A DNA stretch of 64,000 nt from Candidatus Bathyarchaeota archaeon (GTDB lineage: Archaea > Thermoproteota > Bathyarchaeia > Bathyarchaeales > Bathycorpusculaceae). A program made the translations under genes and the position numbers. Position 1 is the stretch's first letter; each line of letters begins with the position of its first letter. Positions 1 to 63,807 of the stretch are shown one piece after another. The notes under the pieces were generated by a model. The model saw only the letters and a program-made list of their open reading frames with translations, ran no database searches and was not told where the DNA came from. Where the stretch lies: NCBI GenBank assembly GCA_963707955.1, contig OY970176.1, positions 1,280,001-1,344,000 on the forward strand, in the 5' to 3' direction.

Positions 1-663
1 AGACAAAGTGCAATTAGAAGAATATTCGAGCCAAATGCCACCGTTGCTGTTTGCCGTGACGTTGTTGCCAGACAAAACATTATTAGAAGAATAGTCGATT
101 TCAATACCATAAAAATCGTTTGTGACGTTATTGCCTGACAAAGTGTTGTTATCAGAAGATTCGAGCCAAATGCCCGTGGCGTTATTTGTGACGTTGTTGC
201 CTGACAAAGTGTTGTTATCAGAAGAAGAGTCGAGCACAATGCCTTCCCAGTCGTTTGTAACGGTGTTGCCAGACAAAGTGCTATTATCAGAAGAGTAGAG
301 GAAAATGCCATTGGCGAAGTTTGTTATCGTCATGTTTTTTACTGTCACGTTGCTCATGTTCGTGAGCGTTGTTCCATTCTCGTCGTATCCTTTTCCACTT
401 CCTGTCACGGTGTAGCCTGCCCCGTTCAAAACGATGTTATTTCTCTCAATCTCAATTCCGTTAGTAGCGCTGGTGATGTTACCAGTTAAAGTGTATGTGA
501 TGTTGTCTGCCGTGTAGATGGGAGCAGTTGACGGGCTTATGCTTCCGTCAGCATTGATGTAGATGGGTGCACCATCGGCCCTGACTATTTGAATCAATCC
601 CGTTATTGATGATATGGAAAGCAAAAACAGAATTGCAACCAAAGCAAAAACAACTCTGTTCAC
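1..663 (-). CDS. NosD-like right-handed parallel beta-helix surface protein (3' end outside window)
   Basis: Manual translation from GTG at 663: MNRVVFALVAILFLLSISSITGLIQIVRADGAPIYINADGSISPSTAPI..., with a signal peptide and then repeated GIxLxxSxNNTLSGNNVT units. The frame is open to position 1. Confidence 0.9.
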   Translation of the reverse strand, partial: MNRVVFALVAILFLLSISSITGLIQIVRADGAPIYINADGSISPSTAPIYTADNITYTLTGNITSATNGIEIERNNIVLNGAGYTVTGSGKGYDENGTTLTNMSNVTVKNMTITNFANGIFLYSSDNSTLSGNTVTNDWEGIVLDSSSDNNTLSGNNVTNNATGIWLESSDNNTLSGNNVTNDFYGIEIDYSSNNVLSGNNVTANSNGGIWLEYSSNCTLS

Positions 664-804
664 CCTTTGTCACTTTCAGACATAGTTTAGATTAAACTAA
701 TTTATACGATTGTCGGAAGAATCTTCAATTGAAATCGTGACCGTGAGAAGCCAAAAGAGAGTCAAATCAAGCGTTTCCTGTTCTGCACTTTCGACACAAA
801 CATT

Positions 805-990
805 TCTGTTTGTGTGTTTGTCTGCGTCTGTCTGTGTGTCTGTCTGCGTCTGTCTGTGTGTCTGTCTGACTGTAAGCTTTCCTAGAGGGAGAGAGAGGGA
901 GAAGGAAGGAAGGGGAAGTGAGGAAGTGAGCGTATGCGTGAAGGAAGAAGAAGAAAAAGATAAAACTTTACCCCCAAACCAAACAGACAC
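805..990. repeat. Low-complexity block A: (GTCT/GTGT)n tract, polypurine tract, TTTACCCCCAAACCAAAC motif
   Basis: Directly visible; a related block lies at 3638-3812. Confidence 0.8.
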
Positions 991-1051
991 GCGGAAACGG
1001 AAAAGCTATAGCCTAACTCATCACAGAACATTCGCTTGGTCTTGAACAAGA

Positions 1052-1267
1052 TTGTCTGAGACCTATCACAGCCGACTTCACAAACGTTTGATAGCATTTG
1101 TAGTAGTATTGGCAGCTCTCCTCATTTTTCTAAATGCTATCGGTTTTGGTTTTCCCAACCCTACTCTCAGGTTGATTTTTATTCTGTGGATGATTTTTCT
1201 CATTGTCATGGCTCTTGCCGCATGGCATTGGTGGGGGCGAGGGATATTCAAGCCAAGACCCCCTTGA
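1052..1267 (+). CDS. Small two-TM membrane protein, hypothetical
   Basis: 71-aa ORF with two hydrophobic helices and a basic/aromatic C-terminus. Confidence 0.55.
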   Translation: MSETYHSRLHKRLIAFVVVLAALLIFLNAIGFGFPNPTLRLIFILWMIFLIVMALAAWHWWGRGIFKPRPP

Positions 1268-1570
1268 CCACGTGTATGACATTAGCAGATTAGTAACGCG
1301 TGCGCTAGAAACTATAATTCTGATTGGGTACCTAGCCGTATCTGGATTGGGGAATCGATTACTTCGCGAGAGTGACATGCGCTAGCGCGCGCCGCCGAAG
1401 AAAACGCTTTCAAATCTAATCTGTACACAAAAACATCAACCAATGTCTGTTAACCACCAGAACTTTCCTCTATAATCCACTTACGGAAACTGTTAAATGA
1501 CCATTTCAAGACACTACATTCACTGCTCTCGCGCGCGCTTTGCACCCAAGGGAGGAAGGGAAGGGGGAAT

Positions 1571-3536
1571 ATGTGGAAAGATAAGAAGACAGTATTGGCG
1601 ACGTTAATCTTGCTGAGCCTTTTGGTTCAGACGACTTCGTTCATGCTTGTCGGCAAAGCTCAGCCGATTACGGCAGAGCAGTTTTCTATCATAAACCCTG
1701 GGCCCACCAGTTTCCCGTCAAGGTGGAACGCATCCTCAACAGTGCGCAACTATAACACGACAAACTTCATCTTCTACAGCAATGAAACTGCCTTCGACTC
1801 AACGTTCTTCATGAACGTCACAGTGACCAACGTGACAAGCCTGTTCGGATGGGGCATAGGCGTAGCTTACGACAGCACTACTCTTCAGTTTGTCAAAGCT
1901 TGGCTTCCAACCGACAACGTATTCGCGGGTGCTGTGGACGCGGGTGCAAGTGTGGTAGCGCCTTCGCCAGTGGTTGCGCCTTTCAATGCTACTTATCAGG
2001 AAGTGGAGTATGGGGCCTCATTTACTCCGCCTACGCCTCCTTGGAGCTTCAACGGCACAGGCACGATGGCCCAAGTGGAGTTTCAAGTAATAGCAGCAGT
2101 GAACAGCACAAACACCCAAGTGAGTTCATCGTTCACGTTTGATCCAGCTTGGACGGGTGTTTACTTCTGGCCAAGCGGGTCGGAAGTTCCCACGTCAAAC
2201 ACCGGGAACTTTGTTTACGCGTGGGCGCCCGCCCGCTCTTTGACATTAGTTGTCACTTCACCAACCTCTACTGCTGTCGGTTCAGCCGTCAACTGTACCG
2301 CCACCGTGACGGGATCAAACCCCACGGGCACCGTCACTTGGAGCACGAACAGCAGCACCGGCTCGTTCAGCCCATCTATCTGCACACTGTCATCTGGAAC
2401 CTGTTCAACCATGTACAACGACACCAGCCCAGGCACCGTTAACATTAATGCAAATTACAGCGGGGACTCGCACAACCTTCCGAGCAACGGCACGAGTATT
2501 TTGACACTGACTGCACCCTCTAGGCATGATGTTGTCGTGAGTAGCGTGTCTACGAGCGCTAACGTGACTCAAGGCGCCTTGTTACCCATCAGCGTTGCAG
2601 TTCTCAATGACGGGACGGCTACTGAAACTTCGGTTGTCGTAAATGCTACAGCTGATGGGATTCTGATTGGATCACCACAAATTGTGCCGTCGCTCCCTGC
2701 TGGCAACACGACGACCCTGGTCTTCAGTCTGGAACACTGCGGGCGTGCTTGTTGGAACCTACAATGTGACGGTTACCGTGACGCCCGTGCCGGGACAGAC
2801 TGACTTGAGCGGCATTTCTAAGACCACCACAGTCCAAATTCTAGAGGCCCCGCTCAAACAGTACTACCTAACCGTCACTTCAGCATATGATTCGCCCTCT
2901 CCGTCGAGCGGTTGGTTTGACTCCGGCACGAACATAACGGAATCCGTGACCTCGCCAGTGTCAGGCGGAAAAGGCGTTCAATACGTTTGCACGGGCTGGA
3001 ACGGAACTGGAAGCATCCCAGCTTCTGGTGCTGCGTCGTCCGTGACGTTTGAGATTACTGCAAACTCAGCCATAACTTGGAACTGGAAAACCCAGTTCCA
3101 GGTGACTTTTGGTCAGTCAGGCGCCGGCTCGGATTTCACGGGCACAGTAGTCACTGTAGACAGCGTCAGCTATAGTGTTAGAGGTCTGACGGTTTCCTTC
3201 TGGTGGGACAGCGGATCAAGTCAAACCTTCTCCTTCACCTCGCCACTAATCGTCAATGCAAACAAACAGTACGTATGGAGCTCAACCTCCGGCCTGTCAA
3301 CTCAACAGAGCGGAACACTGACAGTAACGGCTTCAGGAAGCGTCGTAGGAAACTACGCTACGGCATCTTCCCATCAAATGCCACCTCTGTTGTCGCCCTG
3401 GCTGGTCCTAGGTTCCGTCATCGCGTTGGGTCTCCTCGGTGCCTCTGTTTTATTCATGTTTATTGAGATAGACCTAACAATAAAGAAGAAGAAAAGAAAG
3501 AAAGACGCGAACAAATCCCATAGAACGTTGAATTAG
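1571..3536 (+). CDS. Multidomain cell-surface protein (cohesin-like, Ig-like, CARDB-like, beta-repeat domains, C-terminal TM anchor); frameshift near 2725
   Basis: ORFs 1571-2803 and 2667-3536 join at TTC(A)GTC TGG AAC to give ...TLVFVWNTAG.... Signal peptide, cohesin-like NVTVTNVTSLFGWGIGVAYD, and a TM helix followed by a KKKKRKK tail. Confidence 0.8.
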
Positions 3537-3637
3537 TTTGAAGTTCTACGCTTAGATTCTATGCACCTGATTATATACTTAAAAAAGAATGCCGTCATCC
3601 CATCGGAATCATCACCGCGCGCGCGGAGTTTAAGTTG

Positions 3638-3812
3638 GGTCTGTCTGTGTGTCTGCCTGTCTGTGTGCCTGCCTTTCCTGTCTGGGTCTGTCAGAGAGAG
3701 AGGTATAGTATAGGTGATTAGTAGAAAGGCGTATTCGTAGTCGTTGTTCTTGAAGTAAGTGTTTGGGTTTGGGGGGTAAAACCTTACCCTTTTTCTCTCC
3801 TCTTCTTTTGCT
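3638..3812. repeat. Low-complexity block B: (GTCT)n tract plus an inverted copy of the block A purine/TTTACCCCCAAACC module
   Basis: The reverse complement of 3759-3797 (AGAAAAAGGGTAAGGTTTTACCCCCCAAACCCAAACAC) resembles 952-989 (AGAAAAAGATAAAACTTTACCCCCAAACCAAACAGAC). Confidence 0.75.
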
Positions 3813-3913
3813 CCGGGGCAAGCCAATAGCCTATGTAAGCAATCATAGCGTTACGCGCGCGTTAGATGTCTGTGTTTTGGAAGGATGCTGGTTGTGTTTT
3901 CTCTGAGTTCTGT

Positions 3914-4651
3914 CTAACTTTGGCTTGTTTTCACGGCTTTCCTTTTGTAGATTACGACTGCTAATAGTGTCAATAACATGAAAAACATCGTGGCTTGAAT
4001 CATTGGAAACTCTGGAACCACTACAACTGGAACCATAAGCGGGTAATAGTCAGTCGTCGTGCCATTTTTGTGACCCACCCAACCAATTGCGCGCGCTATA
4101 CTTTCGTGTCCTATTTGGTTTGAGGACCTGTTAGCGTCTTGGATTTGATTGGCCGGCTTAAGGTAGCTATAGAGTTTGCCCGAAGCGGTGAACGTGCCAT
4201 ACCGGGTCATGACAACTCTTTTGTTTCTTTTTTCCCAGCGAACGATCAGACTTAGTCTTGAAAGAAAATAAGTGAAGAATCCCGCGAAAAGGAAAAATAT
4301 CTCTCCAAAAACGAAAGCGCTTCCAAAGAGGACGAAGAAAAAATTGATGAACAAAAACACCGGTAATCCAACTGTCGCTGCGTATACGACGGACCTGTTT
4401 CTTAATGTAAATTCTCCTTTTCGACTTAAAACTCTCAGTTCGCCCTGAGTGGTCATTATAGCTGCAATTACACCCGAAAGTAACCCAAAAACGATGAAGG
4501 AAACGACAATAACCACCGAAGTCGGATCAACCGGGTTTAGAGTAACTATTTGATGAAGCAGTATGATGCTGCCGAAGAGCAAAAAACCCGTGAAAACAAC
4601 CTCAAAACTCAACATGTTAACTTCTCTGTACATCATGAACGTTACCTTCAC
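3914..4651 (-). CDS. Four-TM membrane protein fused to a PEF-CTERM-type sorting tail (probable chimera)
   Basis: The N-terminal region is hydrophobic. The C-terminus TDYYPLMVP..VPEFP-TM-KRK resembles the tail of NosD-type surface proteins. The junction falls on GCGCGCGC at 4089-4096. Confidence 0.65.
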   Translation of the reverse strand: MKVTFMMYREVNMLSFEVVFTGFLLFGSIILLHQIVTLNPVDPTSVVIVVSFIVFGLLSGVIAAIMTTQGELRVLSRKGEFTLRNRSVVYAATVGLPVFLFINFFFVLFGSAFVFGEIFFLFAGFFTYFLSRLSLIVRWEKRNKRVVMTRYGTFTASGKLYSYLKPANQIQDANRSSNQIGHESIARAIGWVGHKNGTTTDYYPLMVPVVVVPEFPMIQATMFFMLLTLLAVVIYKRKAVKTSQS

Positions 4652-4959
4652 GTTGCTCTCTAGGTATCAAGAATTTTGTAATTCATATACTTTTACGCGC
4701 GCGCTCCATTGACCAGCATTAACTCACACACATGCGACAGTCTGCACTGCTCGTCGCGCTAGGGTACAGAACGGTAGGCGGTTGTCAACATAATTAAACT
4801 TCATTTTAACTTCACTCTCTGCTGCTCGGAGACGTCGTCTCACCGCTGCCTTTTTAACAACTTAGCCCGAACTGTACATGGTACGCGCGAATTCTTTAGC
4901 CGCCTTTGAGTGGCGTCACGTTACGTCATTTCTCGCAAGCAACTGATGTTGAACTGGAC

Positions 4960-5087
4960 GTTCTGTAAGTGCCGCTGGATGATTGATCAAGAACAGACTT
5001 TGCTAAGCATGCTGAAAAAAGGGCTGAAGCAGGGAGCAAAATTGGCTTTTCGAGAGCTGAAAGAGGCGTGAAGCCCAGAGTGGGTTT
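4960..5087 (+). repeat. 5' part of a conserved ~190-nt non-coding element (interrupted copy)
   Basis: Aligns with 63134-63266, e.g. TGGATGATTGATCRAGAACAGACTTTGCT and TTTTCGAGAGC. Confidence 0.9.
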
Positions 5088-5267
5088 GGTTACTGGTGCG
5101 TGATTGGACATGAAATCTTCGCGTGCACTATGGACAGTTTAAGTCACAAGTCCTAGATGGGGGTTGACCTGCCGAATTTGATGTATACGTGTTGTTCTTC
5201 TACGTAGCAAGGTTTATATGTAGATAACTACACATGTAGTCATCGCCCATACATGTGAGGTGAAAAA

Positions 5268-5441
5268 ATGGGGAAATTGAACATAAACGTGCAGAAAGAT
5301 GTTGACGAGAAGTTCAGAACAGAAGTATTCAGACGAAAAGGATTGAAGAAGGGCAATATCAAAGAGGCAGTGGAGGAAGCAATGATACTTTGGATTAGCA
5401 CCACACAAAAACCCATTAAGAAAGAAGATAGGAAACCCTGA
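5268..5441 (+). CDS. Small ribbon-helix-helix-like DNA-binding protein (57 aa, not in ORF track)
   Basis: GAGGTGA RBS followed by MGKLNINVQKDVDEKFRTEVFRRKGLKKGNIKEAVEEAMILWIS..., a beta-strand plus two-helix pattern. Confidence 0.75.
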   Translation: MGKLNINVQKDVDEKFRTEVFRRKGLKKGNIKEAVEEAMILWISTTQKPIKKEDRKP

Positions 5442-5454
5442 ACGAAAACTCCAA

Positions 5455-5685
5455 ATGAAAATGAAAATGGAAGAGAGAAAAATGCCCCCAAAACATGAGT
5501 TTCAGTGTTTAATGTCATTGCCCAACCTAGGAGATTACCTCGGAAAATGGATTGCCATAGTAGGAGATCAGGTCGTGGCAAGCGGAACTGATGGAATAGC
5601 AGTATTCAAAGACGCAAAGGAAAAATGCCCAAATAAAGAACCGCTTATCCTGAAAGTTCCGTCTGACAGAGTAATGTTGCTGTGA
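5455..5685 (+). CDS. DUF5678-like small protein
   Basis: YLGKWIAIVGDQVVASG...KCPNKEPLILKVP pattern; the stop overlaps the next gene's start. Confidence 0.8.
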   Translation: MKMKMEERKMPPKHEFQCLMSLPNLGDYLGKWIAIVGDQVVASGTDGIAVFKDAKEKCPNKEPLILKVPSDRVMLL

Positions 5686-6146
5686 TGCACATGCCACGAG
5701 TAGCTATGACTTGTAAATACCTGAGCTACATGCTGCCTGGCTCCAACCCCCCAGTTTCTCTTAACTTACCGATGCTTCACATCAGATTGTCCTGTGGCAA
5801 ATCATCCCTAACCACTATCGGTCTCGTGGATTCCGGCTCAACCACAACCTTTGTTCCTCTGGAGTTAGCAGAGATGCTCTCTATACCAGTTCAGAGAACA
5901 GATACAGCTGTCGGGGCGGGAGGAGGATTCGACAACACCATTAGAAAAGTGAAGATCGACATACTGAAGGGTAAAACGCCTATCGCTATCTTCCCAGATT
6001 TTCCAGCCTATGTCCCAACTGAACCAGACAGAATTCCTTATGTTGTGCTGGGTAGGGACTCGATTTTCAGAAAATTCGACATTACTTTTCGGGAGAACCT
6101 GCAGAGAGTCATTTTTAGAACGCCAAAGAAGAAGAAACTCAGCTGA
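5682..6146 (+). CDS. Retropepsin-like (clan AA) aspartyl protease
   Basis: GLVDSGSTTT catalytic motif, GAGG flap and VVLGRD motif. Confidence 0.88.
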   Translation: MMHMPRVAMTCKYLSYMLPGSNPPVSLNLPMLHIRLSCGKSSLTTIGLVDSGSTTTFVPLELAEMLSIPVQRTDTAVGAGGGFDNTIRKVKIDILKGKTPIAIFPDFPAYVPTEPDRIPYVVLGRDSIFRKFDITFRENLQRVIFRTPKKKKLS

Positions 6147-6302
6147 TCCTCTCGAAGTTTCATAAGTATCCCTCTTCACTCAGGAAGCTTATCACCATAG
6201 TCCTGACAACTTCAGAATCGCTTTCTCCAAGTCTTCCTTCATTAGTCAGATTTCTATAGAAGATTCAAGTTTTCCAATCATGTCCAATCACGCACCATTA
6301 CC

Positions 6303-6366
6303 GTGGGCTTGATTGATGGGTAGGCAGGAATGAACGTGTTTGTCGGTTTCATATTTGGATCATATC
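6303..6366 (+). repeat. 3' part of the conserved non-coding element (interrupted copy), directly upstream of the terminase-like operon
   Basis: GGGTAGGCAGGAATGAACGTGTTTGT matches 63274-63299. Confidence 0.9.
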
Positions 6367-6384
6367 GGTGACCGGGGGTAGAGT

Positions 6385-6693
6385 ATGTCAGAGCGAGAGA
6401 AGAAGAGGTCGGCAAGTCTTGAAAGCCTCATCGCGGATGAATGGGAAATTCTCCGCAGCTTAAAGGACATGATGGAGAACCCTGAGCTGTCTATACAGGA
6501 GAAGCTCAGTACAGCGAACGCTCTTGCTTACCACGCGAGTGTTTTCAGCAAGCTTCTTACGCAGAAGGGTGCAGACGCCGAGCTGAACGAAGCGACTCTG
6601 GGCGACTTCATCAGGGACGTTCAGCCGAGGATTACAAGACGCGGCAGGATGGGCTTCAGACGTTGGATGAGAAGACTTTCGTTGAAAAGGTGA
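6385..6693 (+). CDS. Helical 102-aa protein with basic C-terminus; candidate terminase small-subunit-like partner
   Basis: Overlaps the start of the terminase-like gene; its size and position match TerS. Function is inferred from position only. Confidence 0.65.
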   Translation: MSEREKKRSASLESLIADEWEILRSLKDMMENPELSIQEKLSTANALAYHASVFSKLLTQKGADAELNEATLGDFIRDVQPRITRRGRMGFRRWMRRLSLKR

Positions 6694-8138
6694 CCAACGA
6701 CCTGGCTTTTGCAGCGTCCGTTTCTGAAGGCTTGAGGCGGAGACCGACGGCGTTGAGGCAGCTTCTCGGTTTTGCAGAGGTGACCCGCAGACTCGTTGAC
6801 GACCCCGTTTTCTTTGCGATTCTGATGTGTGGAGACAAGTGGCTCGTTCAAGCCTCAGACCATCAGAAGCTGCTCAGGGACATGAGCCTCAAAACCGTCG
6901 TCGTCTGCGGAAGAGGCTGGGGCAAGAGCCTAGTGTTCAGCAGGAAAAACCTGTGGCTGCTGTTCACAAGGGTCAAGGTGGAGAGCCTCATCATCAGCAG
7001 CACTCAGCGCCAGAGCATGATCATGTTTGACTACTGCTACTCCACCATCATGGCCAACCCGCTCATGAAAGAGATGGTCCAGCATCCGGGAACGACGCAC
7101 ACTACCATCAGGCTCAAACCGCCGCTCGGCGGAAGACTCGTTGCCCTCCCATGCTCACCAGACAAGCTCCGAGGCTACCATCCGGACTGGGTCTTCATAG
7201 ACGAGGCCAGCATCGTTCCCAGCGAGATGATCACAAGCGAAATAATGATGATGCTAACAAAGCCCAACGCTGGCCTAGTCATGAGCGGCACACCCATGGC
7301 CTTCAACCACGTCTTTCACAAAGCCTTCCTAGACAGGAAACGCTACTCAGTGCACCATTATCCAAGCGGCTCAAGCCCCCTCGTAAGCCAACAACAACTC
7401 GACGAATGGCACGACGTAATGACATCAGAAGAATGGAAAAGAGAGGTAGAAGCACAATGGGTTGAAGCTGCAAACGCGTTCTTTCCAATAGACCTGATCG
7501 CACAGTGCATAGACCCCGAGCTGGACAACCCCGACTCAGCCGCCGCCTACATCGAAGACATCGAAAAAGCCAAGCCACAACAGCTTAAACAGCCCTACTA
7601 CGCAGGCCTGGACCTCGGCAAACAAGTCGACCACACCGTCCTAATCATCGTGCAAAAAAACGAAAAAGGCCAAGTCAAACTCGCACACAAACACCAGTTT
7701 CCTCTGGGCACACCTTACCCAAGCATCGTCGGCTACGTGGCTAGAGCCCACCAAATCTTCAACTTCGAACGCCTCTACGCAGACAAAACGGGCGTAGGAG
7801 ACGCCGTAGTCGACGAACTACAAGCCATCAGAGCCGGAAGCGTCAGCGGCATCTTCTTCACAGACATCGAAAAAGAAAACATGCTCAACCACCTCAAGAT
7901 CCTCATGGAAAAACAACTCCTCAAAATCCCAAGCGACGACCAGCAACTAATAACACAGATGAACGAACAGCAATACGAATACCTACAGCCACAAACCGCA
8001 CAACCACGAATCCACCTCAAGTTCTGGCACCCACCAGGCCGCCACGACGACCAACTCTACGCCCTAGCCCTCGCCTGCCGCGCAAGCCTAGAAGCCCCAC
8101 CGCCCGGAGTAGGCGCCATGATGCTCCCACATCGGTAA
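6663..8138 (+). CDS. Terminase large subunit-like ATPase/nuclease
   Basis: Walker A CGRGWGKS, Walker B VFIDEAS, motif III SGTP, and RNase H-like nuclease motifs AGLDLGKQVD, DKTGVGD and HDDQLYALALA. Confidence 0.92.
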   Translation: MDEKTFVEKVTNDLAFAASVSEGLRRRPTALRQLLGFAEVTRRLVDDPVFFAILMCGDKWLVQASDHQKLLRDMSLKTVVVCGRGWGKSLVFSRKNLWLLFTRVKVESLIISSTQRQSMIMFDYCYSTIMANPLMKEMVQHPGTTHTTIRLKPPLGGRLVALPCSPDKLRGYHPDWVFIDEASIVPSEMITSEIMMMLTKPNAGLVMSGTPMAFNHVFHKAFLDRKRYSVHHYPSGSSPLVSQQQLDEWHDVMTSEEWKREVEAQWVEAANAFFPIDLIAQCIDPELDNPDSAAAYIEDIEKAKPQQLKQPYYAGLDLGKQVDHTVLIIVQKNEKGQVKLAHKHQFPLGTPYPSIVGYVARAHQIFNFERLYADKTGVGDAVVDELQAIRAGSVSGIFFTDIEKENMLNHLKILMEKQLLKIPSDDQQLITQMNEQQYEYLQPQTAQPRIHLKFWHPPGRHDDQLYALALACRASLEAPPPGVGAMMLPHR

Positions 8139-8373
8139 CAGCTCCCACAGTTCAAGCGAATCGCCATATCTGACATTTGCGAATGCTCGACGTTGCTAGA
8201 AAAGCGCGCACCAGAAAAAAAGTATACACAAAATTGAGCTAGATTCTGCGCTTCATTCATTATCCGCCCCATATTAGCGTGCGCTAAAGACCATTGAGGA
8301 CGTTGTGTTCATGCGTTTGAACAGTAAATAAGAAATAAAAACAGGCGGATATATAGAACGGGGGGCCACGGGT

Positions 8374-9921
8374 TTGACGGACATCGTTTTGGTTTTTGAG
8401 GTTCATCAGCCTCACAGGATAAAGAAGGGCTTCTTCTGGGGCAACATGGATTTCAAACGCGTGAAGAAGGAGGAACTCTTCGAGTACTACTTCGACAAGG
8501 AGGAGAACAGGGAGATCTTCGACAGAGCAGGCAAGAAATGCTATTTCCCTTCCAACAGCATCCTGCTTGAACTGGTCGACAGGTACAAGAACGAGAGAAA
8601 AAAGGTTAAAGTGTCCTTCAGCCTCAGCGGAATCTTCTTAGAACAGTGCGAGATGTTCAACAAAGACCTGCTCGAAACGTTCAAACAGCTCGCACAAACA
8701 GGACACGTCGAATTTCTCAGCCAAACCTATTATCACTCGCTTGCAAGCCTGTACCCGGAAAGAGAAGAATTCATCGAACAGGTAAAGATGCACCAGCAGA
8801 CAATGCGAGACCTGCTCGACTACACTCCACACGTTTTCGAAAACACAGAACTGCTCTACAACAACGCCGTAGCCCGAACTGTGGAAAAGCTTGGATACAA
8901 AGGAATCTTCACCGAAGGCGTCGAACGGATACTGAAGGGAAAGTCGCCGAACTACCTCTACTCGCCGAAGGACTCCAAGAAACTCAAGGTTTTCCTGAGA
9001 AACTACAAACTGACAGACGACATCGGCTTCAGGTTTTCAGCAAGATGGTGGAACGAGTGGCCGCTGACCGCGGACAAATACGCGAGTTGGCTGGCAGCTA
9101 CACCGGGAAACTGCATCAACATCTTCCCAGACTACGAAACCTTCGGAGAACACCACTGGCCAGAAACAGGCATCCACGAATTCCTCAGACACTTGCCAAG
9201 CGAAATCGTGAAGTGGTGGAACCTCCACATGTCCACGCCTTCAGAAGTGGTGGAAAAGTACGCTTCTGCAGGGGAAATCGACGTCCCAGAACTCGGCGGA
9301 ACCGTTTCCTGGGCAGACCTAGAAAGGGACGCAAGCTGCTGGCTCGGCAACGCCATGCAGTGGGCATACTACACGAGCTTAAGACGATTAGAACCACTCG
9401 TCAAAGAGGCGGAGGACAAGGAGTTCTTAAAAACCTGGAGATACTTCCAAACAAGCGACCACCTTTATTACATGTTCACAGCCGGAGGAGGCCCCGGTGA
9501 AGTTCACTCCTACTTCAGCCCTTTCGCCACGCCGGCAGACGCTTTCGTCACCTTGCAAGCCGCGATACTGGACTTTGAAAACAGAATAAGACTCGCAACC
9601 GTCGTGGCAGATGAACCGTTCCTCTTCTACACAGGCACCGGCGAGAAATACTTCACGGGAACAACGGTCTGGAGCTTAAAAGGGTTCACAAAAGCCATCC
9701 AGCAGGTCAGCGTGAAATCAGTTGAATTTCACAACAAACGCGGAGACTTTGCAAACTGGGCTGAAAAATCACTCCAAGACCAAGTGCTGGCAAAGGAATT
9801 CAACGAAATAAAGCTTGCCAAAACGGAAGGAGAACAGCTTAGAAACGGAATAGCCAAAGCCTCGAAAAAGAGGCTGAACGATTTGAGGGCCGAAATACAG
9901 TCAGCGACAAGATACTTCTGA
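8374..9921 (+). CDS. GH57 alpha-amylase with C-terminal DUF5752-like domain
   Basis: FEVHQP, QTYYHSL, FENTEL, DYETFGEH and QTSDHLYYM motifs; C-terminal PFLFY...SL..F...SVEFH..RGDFANW. Confidence 0.92.
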   Translation: MTDIVLVFEVHQPHRIKKGFFWGNMDFKRVKKEELFEYYFDKEENREIFDRAGKKCYFPSNSILLELVDRYKNERKKVKVSFSLSGIFLEQCEMFNKDLLETFKQLAQTGHVEFLSQTYYHSLASLYPEREEFIEQVKMHQQTMRDLLDYTPHVFENTELLYNNAVARTVEKLGYKGIFTEGVERILKGKSPNYLYSPKDSKKLKVFLRNYKLTDDIGFRFSARWWNEWPLTADKYASWLAATPGNCINIFPDYETFGEHHWPETGIHEFLRHLPSEIVKWWNLHMSTPSEVVEKYASAGEIDVPELGGTVSWADLERDASCWLGNAMQWAYYTSLRRLEPLVKEAEDKEFLKTWRYFQTSDHLYYMFTAGGGPGEVHSYFSPFATPADAFVTLQAAILDFENRIRLATVVADEPFLFYTGTGEKYFTGTTVWSLKGFTKAIQQVSVKSVEFHNKRGDFANWAEKSLQDQVLAKEFNEIKLAKTEGEQLRNGIAKASKKRLNDLRAEIQSATRYF

Positions 9922-33977: not shown

Positions 33978-35468
33978 TTGGCAAAGAAGGAAATAAGAGT
34001 TCAGTATTCAGGACTCATATTTTTCGGAGCCAAACTGATCAGTGTTGCCACAGGCATCCTCTTCACTCTACTGCTGGGTTCATTGTCGCAAGATAAGCTA
34101 GGAGCCTGGGGCATCCTTCTCAACATAATAGTCCCGTATTTCACGCTGTTGTCAGGAGCACTCTCATTCTGGACGATGCGCTTTGTCGCCAGAGACAAAG
34201 AAGGGGCAGCTAAAACGGGGATCGTGGCAAACATGACCATTGCGACAATAGCCACGCTCATCTACCTAGCGTTGCTGCCGTTGGTTACGCAAGCGTTTAG
34301 CCTACAAGATTACGTTATAGCATACATTCTAGTTGCAACACAAATAATCGAAACTTACATTATCACAGTCTTTGAAGCGTGTATGCAAGCTCAGCGACCA
34401 CAGTTCGTAGCTTACGGTTTGTTGATTGGAGAAGTGCTCAAAGTCGTCCTTGCTTACACTTTTGTAATAGCACTTCACTTGGACCTCGTGGGCATGATTC
34501 TCAGTCTTGCAATAGCATTCGCCGTCAAAATAGCATTCTATTTCAAGAATATGTTGATCGAACTTCGACAGAAGTTCGTCTTCAGCCACGTGAAAGAGTG
34601 GCTTAAAGGTTCAACGTTCAACTTATACAGCGCTATAGGTGACAGAATTGCCAGTGTCATATTCATCATGCTCAGCGTTTACGGCCAGAAGATCGGCGTG
34701 AGTTACTACACTGCAGCGCAACTAATCACGAATGTAATAGCGTACTCCGGCGCTGTGGCCTTTGCACTGTACCCGAAAATTCTGGCCGAGCGGAAAATGG
34801 ATGAGGTCACCTCCTCTCTAAGGATGGTCTTGATGTTCGCAATTCCTATGACTGTCGGAGTCCTCGCGATTCCTAACTCGTATCTCATCTTTTTCAATGT
34901 GCAGGGCACGTACGTAGTTGCCATGCCAGTCCTGATAATATTGGCGATCGACGCCCTGATCCAGACAAACGCAGGGTTCTTCACCAATATACTCTACGGA
35001 ATTGAGAGTGTGGACGAAGAAGCAAAGATACCTGTAGGGCAGCTCGTGAAAAGCAGGCTGTTCATATCCTTCTCTTTGCCTTACCTTCATTCAGCGATAA
35101 CTCTGCCGATAGCTTACTACGCTCTGACGCACTTCGCGAACAACGACCCGCTGCTAGTTGCAGTCTACGTCACTGGAATATTCATGATGGGACATCTGAT
35201 CTGTTTTCTAGTTTTGCTCGGTGTCTTGCATAAGGCCGTCAGGTTGAATATTCCATGGAAAAGCATTGTGAAGTACGTAGTTGCATCAGCGATTATGGCG
35301 CTAATTCTGATCGCAGGTCACCCAGTAGCGAGAATTTCAACACTCATATTCACTGGTGTTGGAGGATTGGCTTACCTATCATTGCTCGTTGCAATTGACA
35401 AAGAAACAAGAAACCTCGCAATAGTAATATGGGGAACATTGAAGACAAGATTCGGAAGAGGTTATTGA
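33978..35468 (+). CDS. Oligosaccharide flippase (Wzx/MATE-like), copy 1
   Basis: About 14 TM helices; paralog of 39226-40749. Confidence 0.85.
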   Translation: MAKKEIRVQYSGLIFFGAKLISVATGILFTLLLGSLSQDKLGAWGILLNIIVPYFTLLSGALSFWTMRFVARDKEGAAKTGIVANMTIATIATLIYLALLPLVTQAFSLQDYVIAYILVATQIIETYIITVFEACMQAQRPQFVAYGLLIGEVLKVVLAYTFVIALHLDLVGMILSLAIAFAVKIAFYFKNMLIELRQKFVFSHVKEWLKGSTFNLYSAIGDRIASVIFIMLSVYGQKIGVSYYTAAQLITNVIAYSGAVAFALYPKILAERKMDEVTSSLRMVLMFAIPMTVGVLAIPNSYLIFFNVQGTYVVAMPVLIILAIDALIQTNAGFFTNILYGIESVDEEAKIPVGQLVKSRLFISFSLPYLHSAITLPIAYYALTHFANNDPLLVAVYVTGIFMMGHLICFLVLLGVLHKAVRLNIPWKSIVKYVVASAIMALILIAGHPVARISTLIFTGVGGLAYLSLLVAIDKETRNLAIVIWGTLKTRFGRGY

Positions 35469-38919: not shown

Positions 38920-39225
38920 ACGTGCGCTAATCATGAATCTTAAAGAGAGAACACACAGCTACACGCAATAGAAAGAACACGACTATTTAGTGAGCGAGGA
39001 TTAGATAAGCACTATTCTGGAACAATTGTACTTTACGAATCCTAAAAATGAGAACTACAACGAGTTTCACGCTATTTGCTTAAGGTTAAGGCTTTGTCTA
39101 AACTTTCTCTTATTAGAGCGCGCGAAAAACGGTTTTTAAGGATCCTTCATTCAGTTCAAGATATTAAAGAGGAAACAATAACTCGTGTGGGAAAACGGAA
39201 ACAGCGCGTGCTAAAGGGACGACGT

Positions 39226-40749
39226 GTGAGTAGGAATAGAATAAGGGTTCAGTATTCAGGTCTCATAATATTTGTGGCTCAGATGCTAAGTGTCATAACG
39301 GGATTAATTTTCATTCTCCTGCTCACGAGAAGCATGTCAAATGATCAATACGGTGTATGGTCAAACATTTTTGATTTGACGGGATATTTTTTGCTTCTAA
39401 GCGGGCTGTTTCCGTTTTGGGCAACGCGCTTTGTTGCTCGCGGAAATGAAGGGTCAGCGAAAACGGGGTTTTATGCAAATCTACTGGTGTCTTTGGCTTC
39501 AATAGTGATTTACGTTCCTCTGGTTCCTCTGCTCATGAGCAAATTCAACGTAAGTGGAACATATCTGATGGTATATGTTGTTGCATCTGTATACATAGTC
39601 GCTATTTACTTGATTACTATACTAGAAGCCATTTTACGTGCGGAAAAACCTCAAGCTACAGGATACGGACTGCTTATAGAAGAGATATGTAAAATTTCGT
39701 TAGCATACTTGTTGATAGTGAGGTTTCAATTTTTTGGTCCAGTGAACCAGTTTTTTGGGGCGATGATAAGCCTCGTCGTGGCTACTTCGATTCAAGTAAT
39801 ATACTACTTGAAACTGGTGTTAAGAGATCTTAAGCAGAGGATTCAATGGAGCTACGTAAGAGAATGGCTGAAAGGTTCAGTCGGGTACATTTACAACGCG
39901 GTTGGTGTTCAGATAGCTGGTTTCATTTTCCTTCTGCTCTTCATCTATGGCGGTGAAGCAGCCAGAGGAGATTACCAGGCAGCAGCAACGTTTGCAGGCA
40001 TAGTTGGATATTCTTCATCCTTGGCCTTTGCACTATATCCAAAACTGTTGGCGGAGGATAGCCTGAAGGATGTCACATCTTCACTGAGAACAGTGTTGAT
40101 GTTCGCGATCCCGATGGCAGCAGTTGCCATGTCCATGTCCAAATCACTTTTGACAGTTTTGAAAGGGTCTTATGCAGATTCCTCGCTTGTACTATTCCTG
40201 CTAGCAATCGACGCAGTCATTGTCCTGATATCACAGTTCTATACTTCAGTGCTCCTCGGAATAGAAAAGCTGGATCAAGGAGCAAAAATCCCGCTTAAGC
40301 AATTTCTAAGGAGCAAGATGTTTAAAGTGTTCACATTACCCTACATACAAGCGGCTATTGCCTTACCAGCAGGATTATATGTTTTGACACAGCTTGCGAC
40401 CGGTAATCCTTTGCAAGCAGCTATCTACGTAACTATCATAAACATGGGGGCCCACGTTGCCGCAATTCTTGTTCTGTACATGATTACGCTTGGGGCAGTA
40501 ACGATAGTCGTTCCCTGGAGAAACATAGGAAAATATGTCTTCGCATCAGCAATCATGGTAACTGTTCTATACCTACTTCCACATCCAACAACAATACTCC
40601 CTACGCTTGGCACCGTCGTAGTGGCCGGAGCAATTTACGCTGCACTACTATTAGCGATCGATAGGGAGGCGAGAATTTTTGTTAATTCTATATGGGAAGA
40701 GATCAAGAAGTCATGGAAGCAGTTTTTCGGCGGGGAGGCAACGACATGA
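39226..40749 (+). CDS. Oligosaccharide flippase, copy 2
   Basis: IRVQYSGLI, EWLKGS and AFALYPK shared with copy 1; GTG start inferred from the alignment. Confidence 0.85.
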   Translation: MSRNRIRVQYSGLIIFVAQMLSVITGLIFILLLTRSMSNDQYGVWSNIFDLTGYFLLLSGLFPFWATRFVARGNEGSAKTGFYANLLVSLASIVIYVPLVPLLMSKFNVSGTYLMVYVVASVYIVAIYLITILEAILRAEKPQATGYGLLIEEICKISLAYLLIVRFQFFGPVNQFFGAMISLVVATSIQVIYYLKLVLRDLKQRIQWSYVREWLKGSVGYIYNAVGVQIAGFIFLLLFIYGGEAARGDYQAAATFAGIVGYSSSLAFALYPKLLAEDSLKDVTSSLRTVLMFAIPMAAVAMSMSKSLLTVLKGSYADSSLVLFLLAIDAVIVLISQFYTSVLLGIEKLDQGAKIPLKQFLRSKMFKVFTLPYIQAAIALPAGLYVLTQLATGNPLQAAIYVTIINMGAHVAAILVLYMITLGAVTIVVPWRNIGKYVFASAIMVTVLYLLPHPTTILPTLGTVVVAGAIYAALLLAIDREARIFVNSIWEEIKKSWKQFFGGEATT

Positions 40750-63133: not shown

Positions 63134-63325
63134 GTTTTATAAGCGCCGTTGGATGATTGATCGAGAACAGACTTTGCTGGCCATGCTGAAAAAGGGGAGC
63201 AGAGGCAACGAGAAAAACAATTGGTTTTTCGAGAGCGGCAGGAGCCGTGAAGCTCAGAGTCAGCTTGAGAGGCGGGTAGGCAAGAATGAACGTGTTTGTT
63301 GGGTTTATATCTGAATCCAAATATC
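63134..63325 (+). repeat. Uninterrupted copy of the conserved ~190-nt non-coding element
   Basis: Collinear with 4960-5087 plus 6303-6366. Confidence 0.9.
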
Positions 63326-63807
63326 CATGGTACGTTGAAACCGAGGAGGGGAGGGATCCCTAGCCTGCCAGGAAGAGAAAGTGAGTCTATGGGTTTACGC
63401 TTCGACGCCACGGATGGAAGTTGGACCCTAACGCGCACGCTTGTTCCTAAATTCCTAGATTCTGTTCAAGGGAGAAGCATGGCGTTTTCAGATAGGGGGA
63501 TGGTTACTTTCACGGTTCGAGCTGGGTGCTCTCTCGCTCTCACGCCCTCCCCCCCGGGTATCCTATATGGTCCAAATATGGTTGAAGAGCAGAATGAGTA
63601 GCGCAAGCTGCTTCCCAAAAGAATTCAGGAACACGCTAGCGCGCTGTCTTATGAGAGATCGTTCTTCCTTCTAGCCAGGCATGATCACTTAGGACTTCCT
63701 TTTCGCTCCAGATTTGTCCTGTTGATTTTAAGAATTCCGAAGAGAAAAACAATAAGGCTACTATCAACCAAACAGTACTCTTAGAGTTGAAAAGTGAGGG
63801 CACTTGG

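Follow-up and report, generated by a model that had tools for sequence, protein, structure and literature searches.

What does a terminase of viral type do in an archaeal chromosome that carries no virus genes beside it? The question is raised by a 64,000-nucleotide (nt) stretch of a Candidatus Bathyarchaeota archaeon (assembly GCA_963707955.1, contig OY970176.1; hereafter the window), which covers positions 1,280,001-1,344,000 of a genome assembled as a single contig of 2.35 Mb (G000); coordinates are window positions unless marked as genome positions. The open reading frame (ORF) listing contains two forward-strand genes that overlap by 31 nt, one starting with ATG and encoding a small protein of 102 amino acids (aa) and the other starting with TTG and encoding a 491-aa protein resembling the terminase large subunit (TerL) (Table 1). 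On the evidence of sequence comparison, this pair is best regarded as a stand-alone holoterminase of viral origin, i.e. a selected, horizontally mobile two-gene unit residing in Bathyarchaeia chromosomes. It is considered a working unit and not the debris of a dead virus, because it is found in many related archaea, is maintained by selection, and passes from one genus to another.

Identity of the terminase pair

The 491-aa protein matched the PHROG family phrog_2 ('terminase large subunit') with an E-value of 9e-34 over residues 67-476, as well as five more TerL PHROGs. A profile built from 28 family members retrieved the TerL nuclease of a Thermus phage (PDB 5m1f, 5.7e-12; 5m1f and 5tge both at approximately 6e-12) and the ATPase domain 4zni (2.2e-6). 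In Pfam, the window protein alone reached 19.0 bits with Terminase_6N, under the cut-off of 22, and precomputed PF03237 or PF17289 assignments are present on approximately 30 of 120 listed TerL homologues; this weak sensitivity of Pfam appears to be outweighed by the PHROG and PDB evidence for TerL identity. Walker A (C82-G-R-G-W-G-K-S89), Walker B (D180 E181), the coupling motif (G209 T210 P211), and the nuclease residues D317, D374, D380, and H461 D462 D463 are invariant in all 28 aligned sequences. The D317, D374, and D462-D463 blocks align with GADFGK, ADTWGVGD, and GHDD of the solved nuclease, respectively, the blocks that hold its catalytic residues. Over 40 TerL sequences, 114 of the 491 positions never vary and 122 reach at least 90% conservation. 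Judged by these comparisons, the gene encodes a true TerL, with an N-terminal P-loop ATPase, a C-terminal RNase H-like nuclease, and catalytic residues that appear intact; the original prediction, made from the window alone, of a 102-aa helical ORF overlapping a TerL gene with intact motifs is thus borne out.

The small protein had no match in Pfam, PHROG, or PADLOC. Its structural model consists of four helices (mean pLDDT, 77), and the predicted complex with TerL reached a score of 0.27 (mark, 0.32). The two genes overlap by 22-58 nt in all 40 intact modules of the family, and an overlapping small gene and TerL gene are also present in two virus-like contigs described below.

The pair has no particle genes beside it. 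As the original prediction had noted from the letters alone, portal, capsid, and integrase families are missing from the 64 kb: a genome-wide Pfam scan gave no match to any of them within the window, replication genes not being among those searched for. The single portal match (PF04860) lies at 2.057 Mb, the single capsid match (PF25209) at 2.062 Mb, and none of the nine PF00589 integrase matches falls inside genome positions 1,280,001-1,344,000. A GH57 glycoside hydrolase gene of the host (8374-9921; PF03065, E 4.4e-85) directly follows the TerL gene, also as predicted.

Distribution of the family in Bathyarchaeia

A protein search with TerL at E<=1e-20 retrieved 633 relatives. Among them, the best 120 clusters are 69-100% identical to it, encode proteins of 435-502 aa, and lie on contigs of up to megabases; the named ones are Bathyarchaeota proteins annotated as 'terminase family' or 'FluMu gp28-like'. 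An orthologue (E<=1e-100) is present in 14 of 401 genomes drawn from the whole class (13 of these are from the host's own family), and in 41 of the 332 genomes of that family, where it is spread over 12 of 70 genera (27 of 120 genomes in the genus labelled g17 and 2 of 11 in the window's genus). The window pair is one member of a tight Bathyarchaeia family, which comprises over 120 protein clusters at 69-83% identity and has a patchy, accessory distribution.

The neighbourhoods of 51 loci (the window locus, 49 genome loci, and one IMG/VR contig) were clustered. The small ORF family is found directly upstream of TerL in 44 of them, and an opposite-strand gene of 115-166 aa lies downstream in 25, which is RHH-like by reading and had no Pfam or PHROG match; all other neighbouring genes vary between loci. 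Portal, capsid, and tail genes do not adjoin the pair in 49 of the 51 loci, the two exceptions (L083 and L087) having virus-linked neighbours. When the 1157 neighbour ORFs were compared by phmmer with all proteins of the genome's provirus (see below), no portal or capsid was found, and comparison with the genome's nine integrases gave one borderline match only (E 0.00099). In a further 80 metagenome loci, no particle genes were detected nearby except in L118 and L175, which are the same contigs as the virus-like L087 and L093. The small ORF and TerL occur together in 66 of these 80, and in 5 more the small ORF was recognized through a match to the L093 copy. Among the nine without it, eight have TerL at or near a contig edge, and in L108 the small ORF is frame-shifted.

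The original prediction had proposed a domesticated two-gene system, to be abandoned if the closest homologues lay in complete proviruses and the orphan arrangement turned out to be peculiar to this genome or to be evolving neutrally. The arrangement is neither: comparison of homologue neighbourhoods and of substitution rates identified a recurrent, selected unit (40 intact pairs in 51 loci, 41 of 332 genomes), and only 2 distinct loci of approximately 130 stand beside tail genes. For the defence role offered for the system, no PADLOC model matched, and it is conjectural.

Selection and horizontal transfer

The ratio of non-synonymous to synonymous substitution (dN/dS) was calculated by the Nei-Gojobori method for pairs with dS of 0.05-1.5. 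The median was 0.107 for TerL over 75 pairs, and 0.198 for the small gene. In stand-alone pairs of loci that are syntenic on at least one flank, TerL dN/dS was 0.066 (the window against the same-genus genome G001, dS 0.33), 0.067, 0.071, and 0.079; dS in these pairs ranges from 0.33 to 0.66 and the reading frames are intact. Between G000 and G001, TerL is 95% identical, and five of the six flanking host genes are 90-93% identical. These values indicate that the syntenic copies have diverged in the stand-alone state under purifying selection.

The unit transfers horizontally, because the gene tree conflicts with the host genera and a 1.9-kb unit is near-identical between two genera. Locus-to-genome mapping was verified by sequence. 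In the TerL tree, the 22 sequences of genus g17 form two subclades mixed with other genera, requiring at least 4-5 changes. A single g17 clade was rejected by the approximately unbiased (AU) test (p 1e-49), for a group that was tested after an earlier tree had been seen, though it was set by database genus labels. The common unit of locus L040 (genus g52) and locus L058 (g17), 1.9 kb in length, is 91.6% identical at the nucleotide level over a stretch that opens 148 nt ahead of the small ORF and closes with the TerL stop codon (TerL dS 0.39) and stands between unrelated flanks; the GH57 proteins of the two genomes are 70.7% identical, with synonymous sites saturated (proportion of synonymous differences, 0.77). 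The small gene is also exchanged separately: in L050 and L060, which are otherwise syntenic, the small genes have diverged to dS 2.7 and dN 0.42, and homology sets in only some 20 nt ahead of the TerL start. Divergence or swapping of the small gene while TerL stays constant fits the behaviour of a specificity subunit.

Viral relatives and resident particle genes

Two IMG/VR contigs, L087 and L093, carry the same small gene and TerL pair (78 and 67% identical, respectively). Upstream of it they encode a tail-tube protein (PF18906, 1.3e-9), a Neck1-like protein (phrog_5, 9.5e-19), a tail protein (phrog_400), two small membrane proteins, and a 129-aa protein, and the gene following TerL is not a portal but an ABC-ATPase fused to GNAT. 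In the tree, the stand-alone clade is compact and has a long stem, and the two contigs are nested within it at different places. The terminase pair of the window thus also serves genuine tailed viruses of the class. In L215, the tail genes of L087 and L093 come after a major head protein gene, whereas in L217 and L220 they accompany another small gene and TerL pair, of the provirus type. The presence of the same tail genes with different terminase pairs shows that related viruses swap terminase modules; the tail genes of L087 and L093 are approximately 70% identical to those of L217 and L220 despite the two different modules.

The search for HK97-type capsid and portal genes that the original prediction called for did find them in the window's genome, but in a separate provirus with its own TerL. 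This compact head-tail region (genome 2054544-2076920; L012 and L013) contains, in order, a 117-aa ORF, a TerL that is 33% identical to that of the window, portal, HK97-type capsid, tape measure, tail genes, a 129-aa protein, a small membrane protein, and ABC-ATPase/GNAT. The small ORF of the window and the 117-aa ORF show no similarity (E 6.2), and among the TerL types compared, a portal follows TerL only in this provirus type. Four of five carrier genomes (94-100% complete) had no PF04860 or PF25209 match, a count based on two Pfam families only, so that divergent head genes could be missed; in G601 (93% complete), portal and capsid matches lie approximately 210 kb from the unit. No second TerL match was found in G001. 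PMC11697101 describes a Bathy-6 genome with a 46.8-kb provirus including a terminase, and bioRxiv 2023.08.24.554615 treats the hallmark genes of Fuxivirus.

The TerL clade of the window branches from TerLs of a wider, five-gene cassette found in many relatives, which encodes a 129-aa protein, a 91-aa membrane protein, a small ORF, a TerL (35-41% identical), and ABC-ATPase/GNAT (L017-L022, L026-L028, L032, L033, L036, L037, L083, L119, L170, L171, and L179, from several Bathyarchaeia families); in some loci the ATPase precedes TerL. No head or tail homologues were found nearby in the two 20-kb contexts inspected, L036 and L037. The cassette resembles the window unit in its stand-alone TerL, small partner, and lack of head genes, whereas the window unit has no 129-aa, 91-aa, or ABC/GNAT gene. 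For the ABC-ATPase/GNAT fusion, PMC7824862 cites a prediction by Iyer et al. (2013) that it acylates a DNA base. In L170, the 129-91-small-TerL genes are immediately preceded (115-8171) by those for a helicase, a DNA methyltransferase of 972 aa (phrog_10183, E 1.9e-137), and a protein of 988 aa, a neighbourhood that looks like a restriction or bacteriophage exclusion (BREX)-type defence locus.

Upstream region

The original prediction had described a conserved, multicopy, non-coding leader in front of the module. A non-coding element does recur at 63.2 kb, where 63134-63317 matches 4960-5023 (86%) and 6307-6361 (82%), with a third copy at genome 1276985-1277182, 3 kb before the window begins. 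The leader is unsplit at 63134-63317; at the terminase locus, its two parts (4960-5081 and 6307-6361) are separated by a three-gene segment (5089-6303), which is an insertion because it is missing from the syntenic G001 locus. The inserted genes encode an RHH-like protein (5268-5441, 57 aa; RHH_6, 6.4e-4), a DUF5678 protein (5455-5685, 76 aa; 1e-13), and a retropepsin-like aspartyl protease (5682-6146, 154 aa; Asp_protease_2, 6.2e-5), the last of which also matched PADLOC PDC-M52B (5.4e-5). Beyond the common part the copies differ: that of the terminase locus leads into the small ORF, and the other two lead into a 'type 2' tail with the palindrome ATATTTGGATCCAAATAT.

The last approximately 40 nt before the small-ORF ATG contain the motif CATATTTGGATCATAT and a G-rich run. 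CATATTTGGATCATAT is found 25-40 nt ahead of the small ORF in many relatives, often doubled, and occurs 32 times in the genome against 0.84 expected. Most of these genome copies lie inside a 215-nt miniature element with inverted ends, a miniature inverted-repeat transposable element (MITE) family with approximately 24 copies and 67 end-matches. The claimed single leader of the module is therefore better described as a mosaic, in which a genus-level repeat of three copies is joined to a short promoter-like block, also present in the MITE family, and is here interrupted by the three-gene insert; only the proximal promoter-like motif is widely shared among relatives. A further, distal motif, CACTTTCACTCTACCCTCC, is present once per locus in 33 and twice in 3 more of 130 scanned loci (49 genome loci, virus contig L087, and 80 metagenome loci), and does not mark element ends, because it has no partner 3' of TerL. 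The idea that the leader is what is left of a gene (peptide ...WMIDxEQTLL...) was dropped, as the motif is confined to the genome's own two copies. An Rfam gathering search of the window returned tRNA-Val only and nothing on the leader, whose folding and covariation were not tried.

A relic of the unit's 5' end, 104 nt in length (untranslated region and 21 codons from the start of the small ORF), lies at genome 830897-831000 upstream of a tyrosyl-tRNA-synthetase-like gene and is 96% identical to the window copy and 97% identical to the G001 copy. Two 198-nt miniature elements (genome 1438993-1439183 and 1563692-1563889) share its first 53 nt.

Table 1. Features of the terminase locus and its repeats in the window
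Feature	Position	Strand	Basis and remarks
Left (distal) part of leader repeat, copy b	4960-5081	+	80-86% identity to 63134-63260 and to genome 1276985..; continuous with the proximal part in G001
Insertion of 1.2 kb with three genes, outside the terminase unit	5089-6303	+	Missing from the syntenic G001 locus; Pfam, PADLOC
Proximal leader	6304-6384	+	Promoter-like CATATTTGGATCATAT at 6350-6365 and G-rich Shine-Dalgarno-like run right before the ATG; putative function
Small helical partner gene (102 aa), TerS-like by position only	6385-6693	+	Overlaps TerL in 40/40 intact modules
TerL-like ATPase and RNase H-like nuclease (491 aa, TTG start)	6663-8138	+	PHROG, PDB profile, motifs
3' tail of the unit, ending where G001 has an extra 1.8 kb	8139-8205	+	Alignment to G001
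Second leader copy, unsplit, leading into the 'type 2' tail, no terminase genes	63134-63340	+	Repeat comparison

Possible function and alternative explanations

We estimate a probability of approximately 40% that the unit is a satellite-like terminase which acts on infecting viruses and hijacks or sabotages their packaging, a function predicted from its gene content and relatives. The unit would consist of an upstream control region of approximately 80-300 nt, the 102-aa helical protein, and TerL. The small protein, in the role of the small terminase subunit (TerS), would bind a recognition site in or near the unit, and TerL, translationally coupled to it, would cut and translocate DNA. The doubled or tripled arrays of short motifs upstream of the small gene count in favour of the model as a whole. 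Since most carrier genomes have no capsid genes, the partners must be the procapsids and DNA of infecting viruses; these would be tailed viruses with the same terminase type (the L087/L093 lineage), through a putative contact with the capsid. Capsids may thereby be diverted to DNA starting at the unit, as in phage-inducible chromosomal islands (PICIs) and Staphylococcus aureus pathogenicity islands (SaPIs), so that the unit and neighbouring host DNA would spread and the virus's own packaging would be disturbed. A narrower version, in which this 2-kb unit, made up of no more than a recognition region, a specificity protein, and TerL, is a 'packaging parasite' that has neither capsid nor integrase and loads the empty heads of an infecting virus with DNA starting at itself, seems rather doubtful to us.

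Several observations weigh against a satellite-like terminase. The assignment of the TerS role to the small protein rests on position, because no TerS family or fold is detectable; its model had no Foldseek match in PDB or BFVD at E<=0.001. Entry into new chromosomal sites is left without an explanation by integrase, inverted ends, or target duplication, and 40 of 41 carriers hold a single copy per genome, which speaks against transposon-like proliferation. The virus-context members are few (two distinct contigs). The upstream motif may be just a common promoter, since it also occurs in unrelated miniature elements. Copies also decay: TerL frames are split or truncated away from contig ends in 7 of 49 genome loci, and in the family census 5 of 42 matches are partial away from a contig end, a sixth being cut by one. 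Identity, intactness, recurrence, selection, horizontal transfer, the viral relatives, and the lack of resident head genes are shown by the data, and beyond them DNA recognition by the small protein, the pac or cos site, the cut site, the capsid contact, and the outcome are putative.

The closest rival is a pure host defence, in which the pair would recognize and cleave DNA from related invaders, or would titrate viral procapsids, and so cause packaging interference or superinfection exclusion with no transfer of itself. A patchy, accessory distribution (41 of 332 genomes) would suit such a role, as would the placement in a variable region, on the border of a 38-kb island that three related genomes lack and beside the cassette with the PDC-M52B-like protein; so would the helicase and methyltransferase genes adjoining the L170 cassette, the PIN/AbrB-like pairs within seven genes in 13 of 51 loci (named mostly by reading, with one weak PIN match), and a small subunit that evolves fast and is swapped. 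However, no PADLOC-DB 2.0 family matched TerL or the small protein at E<=0.1, the data give no support for self/non-self discrimination, and defence alone leaves the transfer of exactly a 1.9-kb unit between genera unexplained. We therefore regard it as unlikely by itself, though a serious contender. It overlaps with a satellite-like terminase, because satellites also interfere; hijacking with self-transfer and the wrecking of packaging cannot be separated here, as satellites do both. That transfer of a discrete unit with sharp limits also suggests a new minimal mobile element, in which TerL, with its RNase H-fold nuclease and motor, would be a recombinase or transposase and the small protein its DNA-binding partner. 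The 104-nt relic of the 5' end, the two miniature elements that share its first 53 nt, and the lack of another recombinase nearby point in this direction. Nevertheless, no inverted ends, target duplications, or border repeats are visible at the aligned borders of the unit, the inverted ends of the miniature elements were not found there either, copy number is one in 40 of 41 carriers, and to our knowledge no TerL catalyses strand transfer, all of which makes this explanation improbable.

The remaining two explanations fare worse, and the data disfavour the first and appear to exclude the second. A packaging component like that of a gene transfer agent, with head and tail genes elsewhere in the genome, had been suggested in the original prediction and could draw on the head-tail gene set at 2.05-2.08 Mb and on the portal and capsid matches in G601. 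The former, however, has its own small ORF, TerL, and portal in canonical order, G001 has no second TerL match, and the lack of matches to the two Pfam families in four of five carriers argues against a gene transfer agent, making this suggestion very improbable. That the pair is a functionless prophage remnant, whose conservation is only apparent and reflects recent, independent decay of many proviruses, we consider hardly credible: close relatives do occur in real viruses and 7 of 49 loci are broken, but the idea is contradicted by the selection data, i.e. by syntenic stand-alone pairs with dS of 0.33-0.66, dN/dS of 0.07-0.08, and no frame disruption, by 40 intact overlapping pairs without flanking virus genes, and by a TerL that is more conserved than five of six neighbouring host genes.

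Comparison with known systems

The unit shares with the TerS-TerL holoterminase of Caudoviricetes the two-domain TerL, Walker A and B, an SGTP-type motif, and three acidic nuclease blocks, together with a small, translationally coupled upstream partner gene. Unlike the holoterminase of tailed viruses, it has no adjoining portal, capsid, or tail genes and is kept as a selected chromosomal unit, and unlike known TerS, the small protein could be assigned to no TerS family or fold. SaPI and PICI satellites are chromosomal, patchy, and horizontally spread, use the particles of helper viruses, and redirect packaging via a terminase component of their own. They carry integrase, att sites, repressor, and replication genes and usually TerS only, and capsid-forming PICIs also exist. 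The window unit differs in having two genes only, both subunits, and an archaeal host; no relative of the genome's nine integrases and no border repeats were found at the unit (apart from the borderline match among the 1157 neighbour ORFs), repressor and replication genes not having been specifically searched for. Gene transfer agents possess a full head-tail set in the genome, and lateral transduction requires a resident prophage. A chromosome-resident terminase could likewise start the packaging of host DNA, but no head-tail set was detected in four of five carriers. Hallmarks of insertion sequences or transposons were also lacking, as the aligned borders have no terminal inverted repeats or target duplication and the unit is not multicopy.

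In the literature covered, from which the supplements of PMC11697101 are excluded, no description of a stand-alone terminase unit was found for Bathyarchaeia or archaea, or under the terms orphan, solitary, or domesticated terminase. A terminase gene is usually read as the hallmark of a virus or prophage; here, a pair is selected and exchanged between genera without particle genes, in a host class of abundant, uncultured archaea. In practical terms, a lone TerL match in such genomes should not be counted as a provirus. If the unit hijacks or blocks packaging, it would be a satellite or defence unit of a new kind, and a very small one, as well as a route for gene flow among Bathyarchaeia. As a packaging parasite, it would be the smallest known virus satellite and, as far as our searches reach, the first reported in archaea, and the unit with tens of kilobases of adjacent host DNA could spread between Bathyarchaeia genera in a gene flow resembling lateral transduction. 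The analysis also uncovered the wider five-gene terminase cassette with ABC-ATPase/GNAT and the swapping of terminase modules among related Bathyarchaeia viruses.

Borders of the unit and other features of the region

In the alignment with G001, window positions 6304-8205 match, and the match picks up again at 8203 beyond a 1.8-kb insert; in a different subclade, homology stops at the TerL stop codon. The extra 1.8 kb of G001 lies between TerL and GH57 (L038, 11477-13510) and contains ORFs of 215, 201, and 143 aa, the last matching phrog_5176, a family of unknown function.

The terminase unit forms the right edge of the 38-kb region (genome 1250083-1288375). Both this region and one of 25 kb (genome 1221178-1245870) are missing between conserved flanks in G004, G008, and G009, and G007 has a 'type 2' repeat at the site corresponding to the 38-kb region. 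By reading, the 38-kb region contains genes for large surface proteins that carry a PEF-type sorting signal at the C-terminus, an MFS transporter, and radical-SAM-like and HSP90-like ATPase proteins.

The perfect 18-bp palindrome ATATTTGGATCCAAATAT is found exactly at seven genome sites (those listed are 94556, 874968, 1163998, 1374407, 1882670, and 2200319). It opens a repeat of 45-120 nt, the 'type 2' tail, of which an imperfect copy is present at 63307-63340, and resembles an operator of the kind bound by protein dimers. A copy of the 215-nt miniature inverted-repeat element, with ends GCGCGCTAGCGTGTTCCTGAATTC, occupies 63429-63646, and approximately 23 further copies are dispersed in the genome; it shares the promoter-like block of the terminase unit (CATATTTGGATCATAT, G-run, and GTG).

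Tandem repeats of 66-69 nt occur within a minus-strand surface-protein gene, and TGTC/TGCG-rich simple repeats occur in two intergenic places; the spots listed for the two kinds together are 1-311, 811-883, and 3636-3686. Two paralogous genes of approximately 500 aa, at 33978-35468 and 39076-40749, are 5.2 kb apart and share approximately 70% DNA identity (repeat families D5 and D6); they probably encode membrane proteins.

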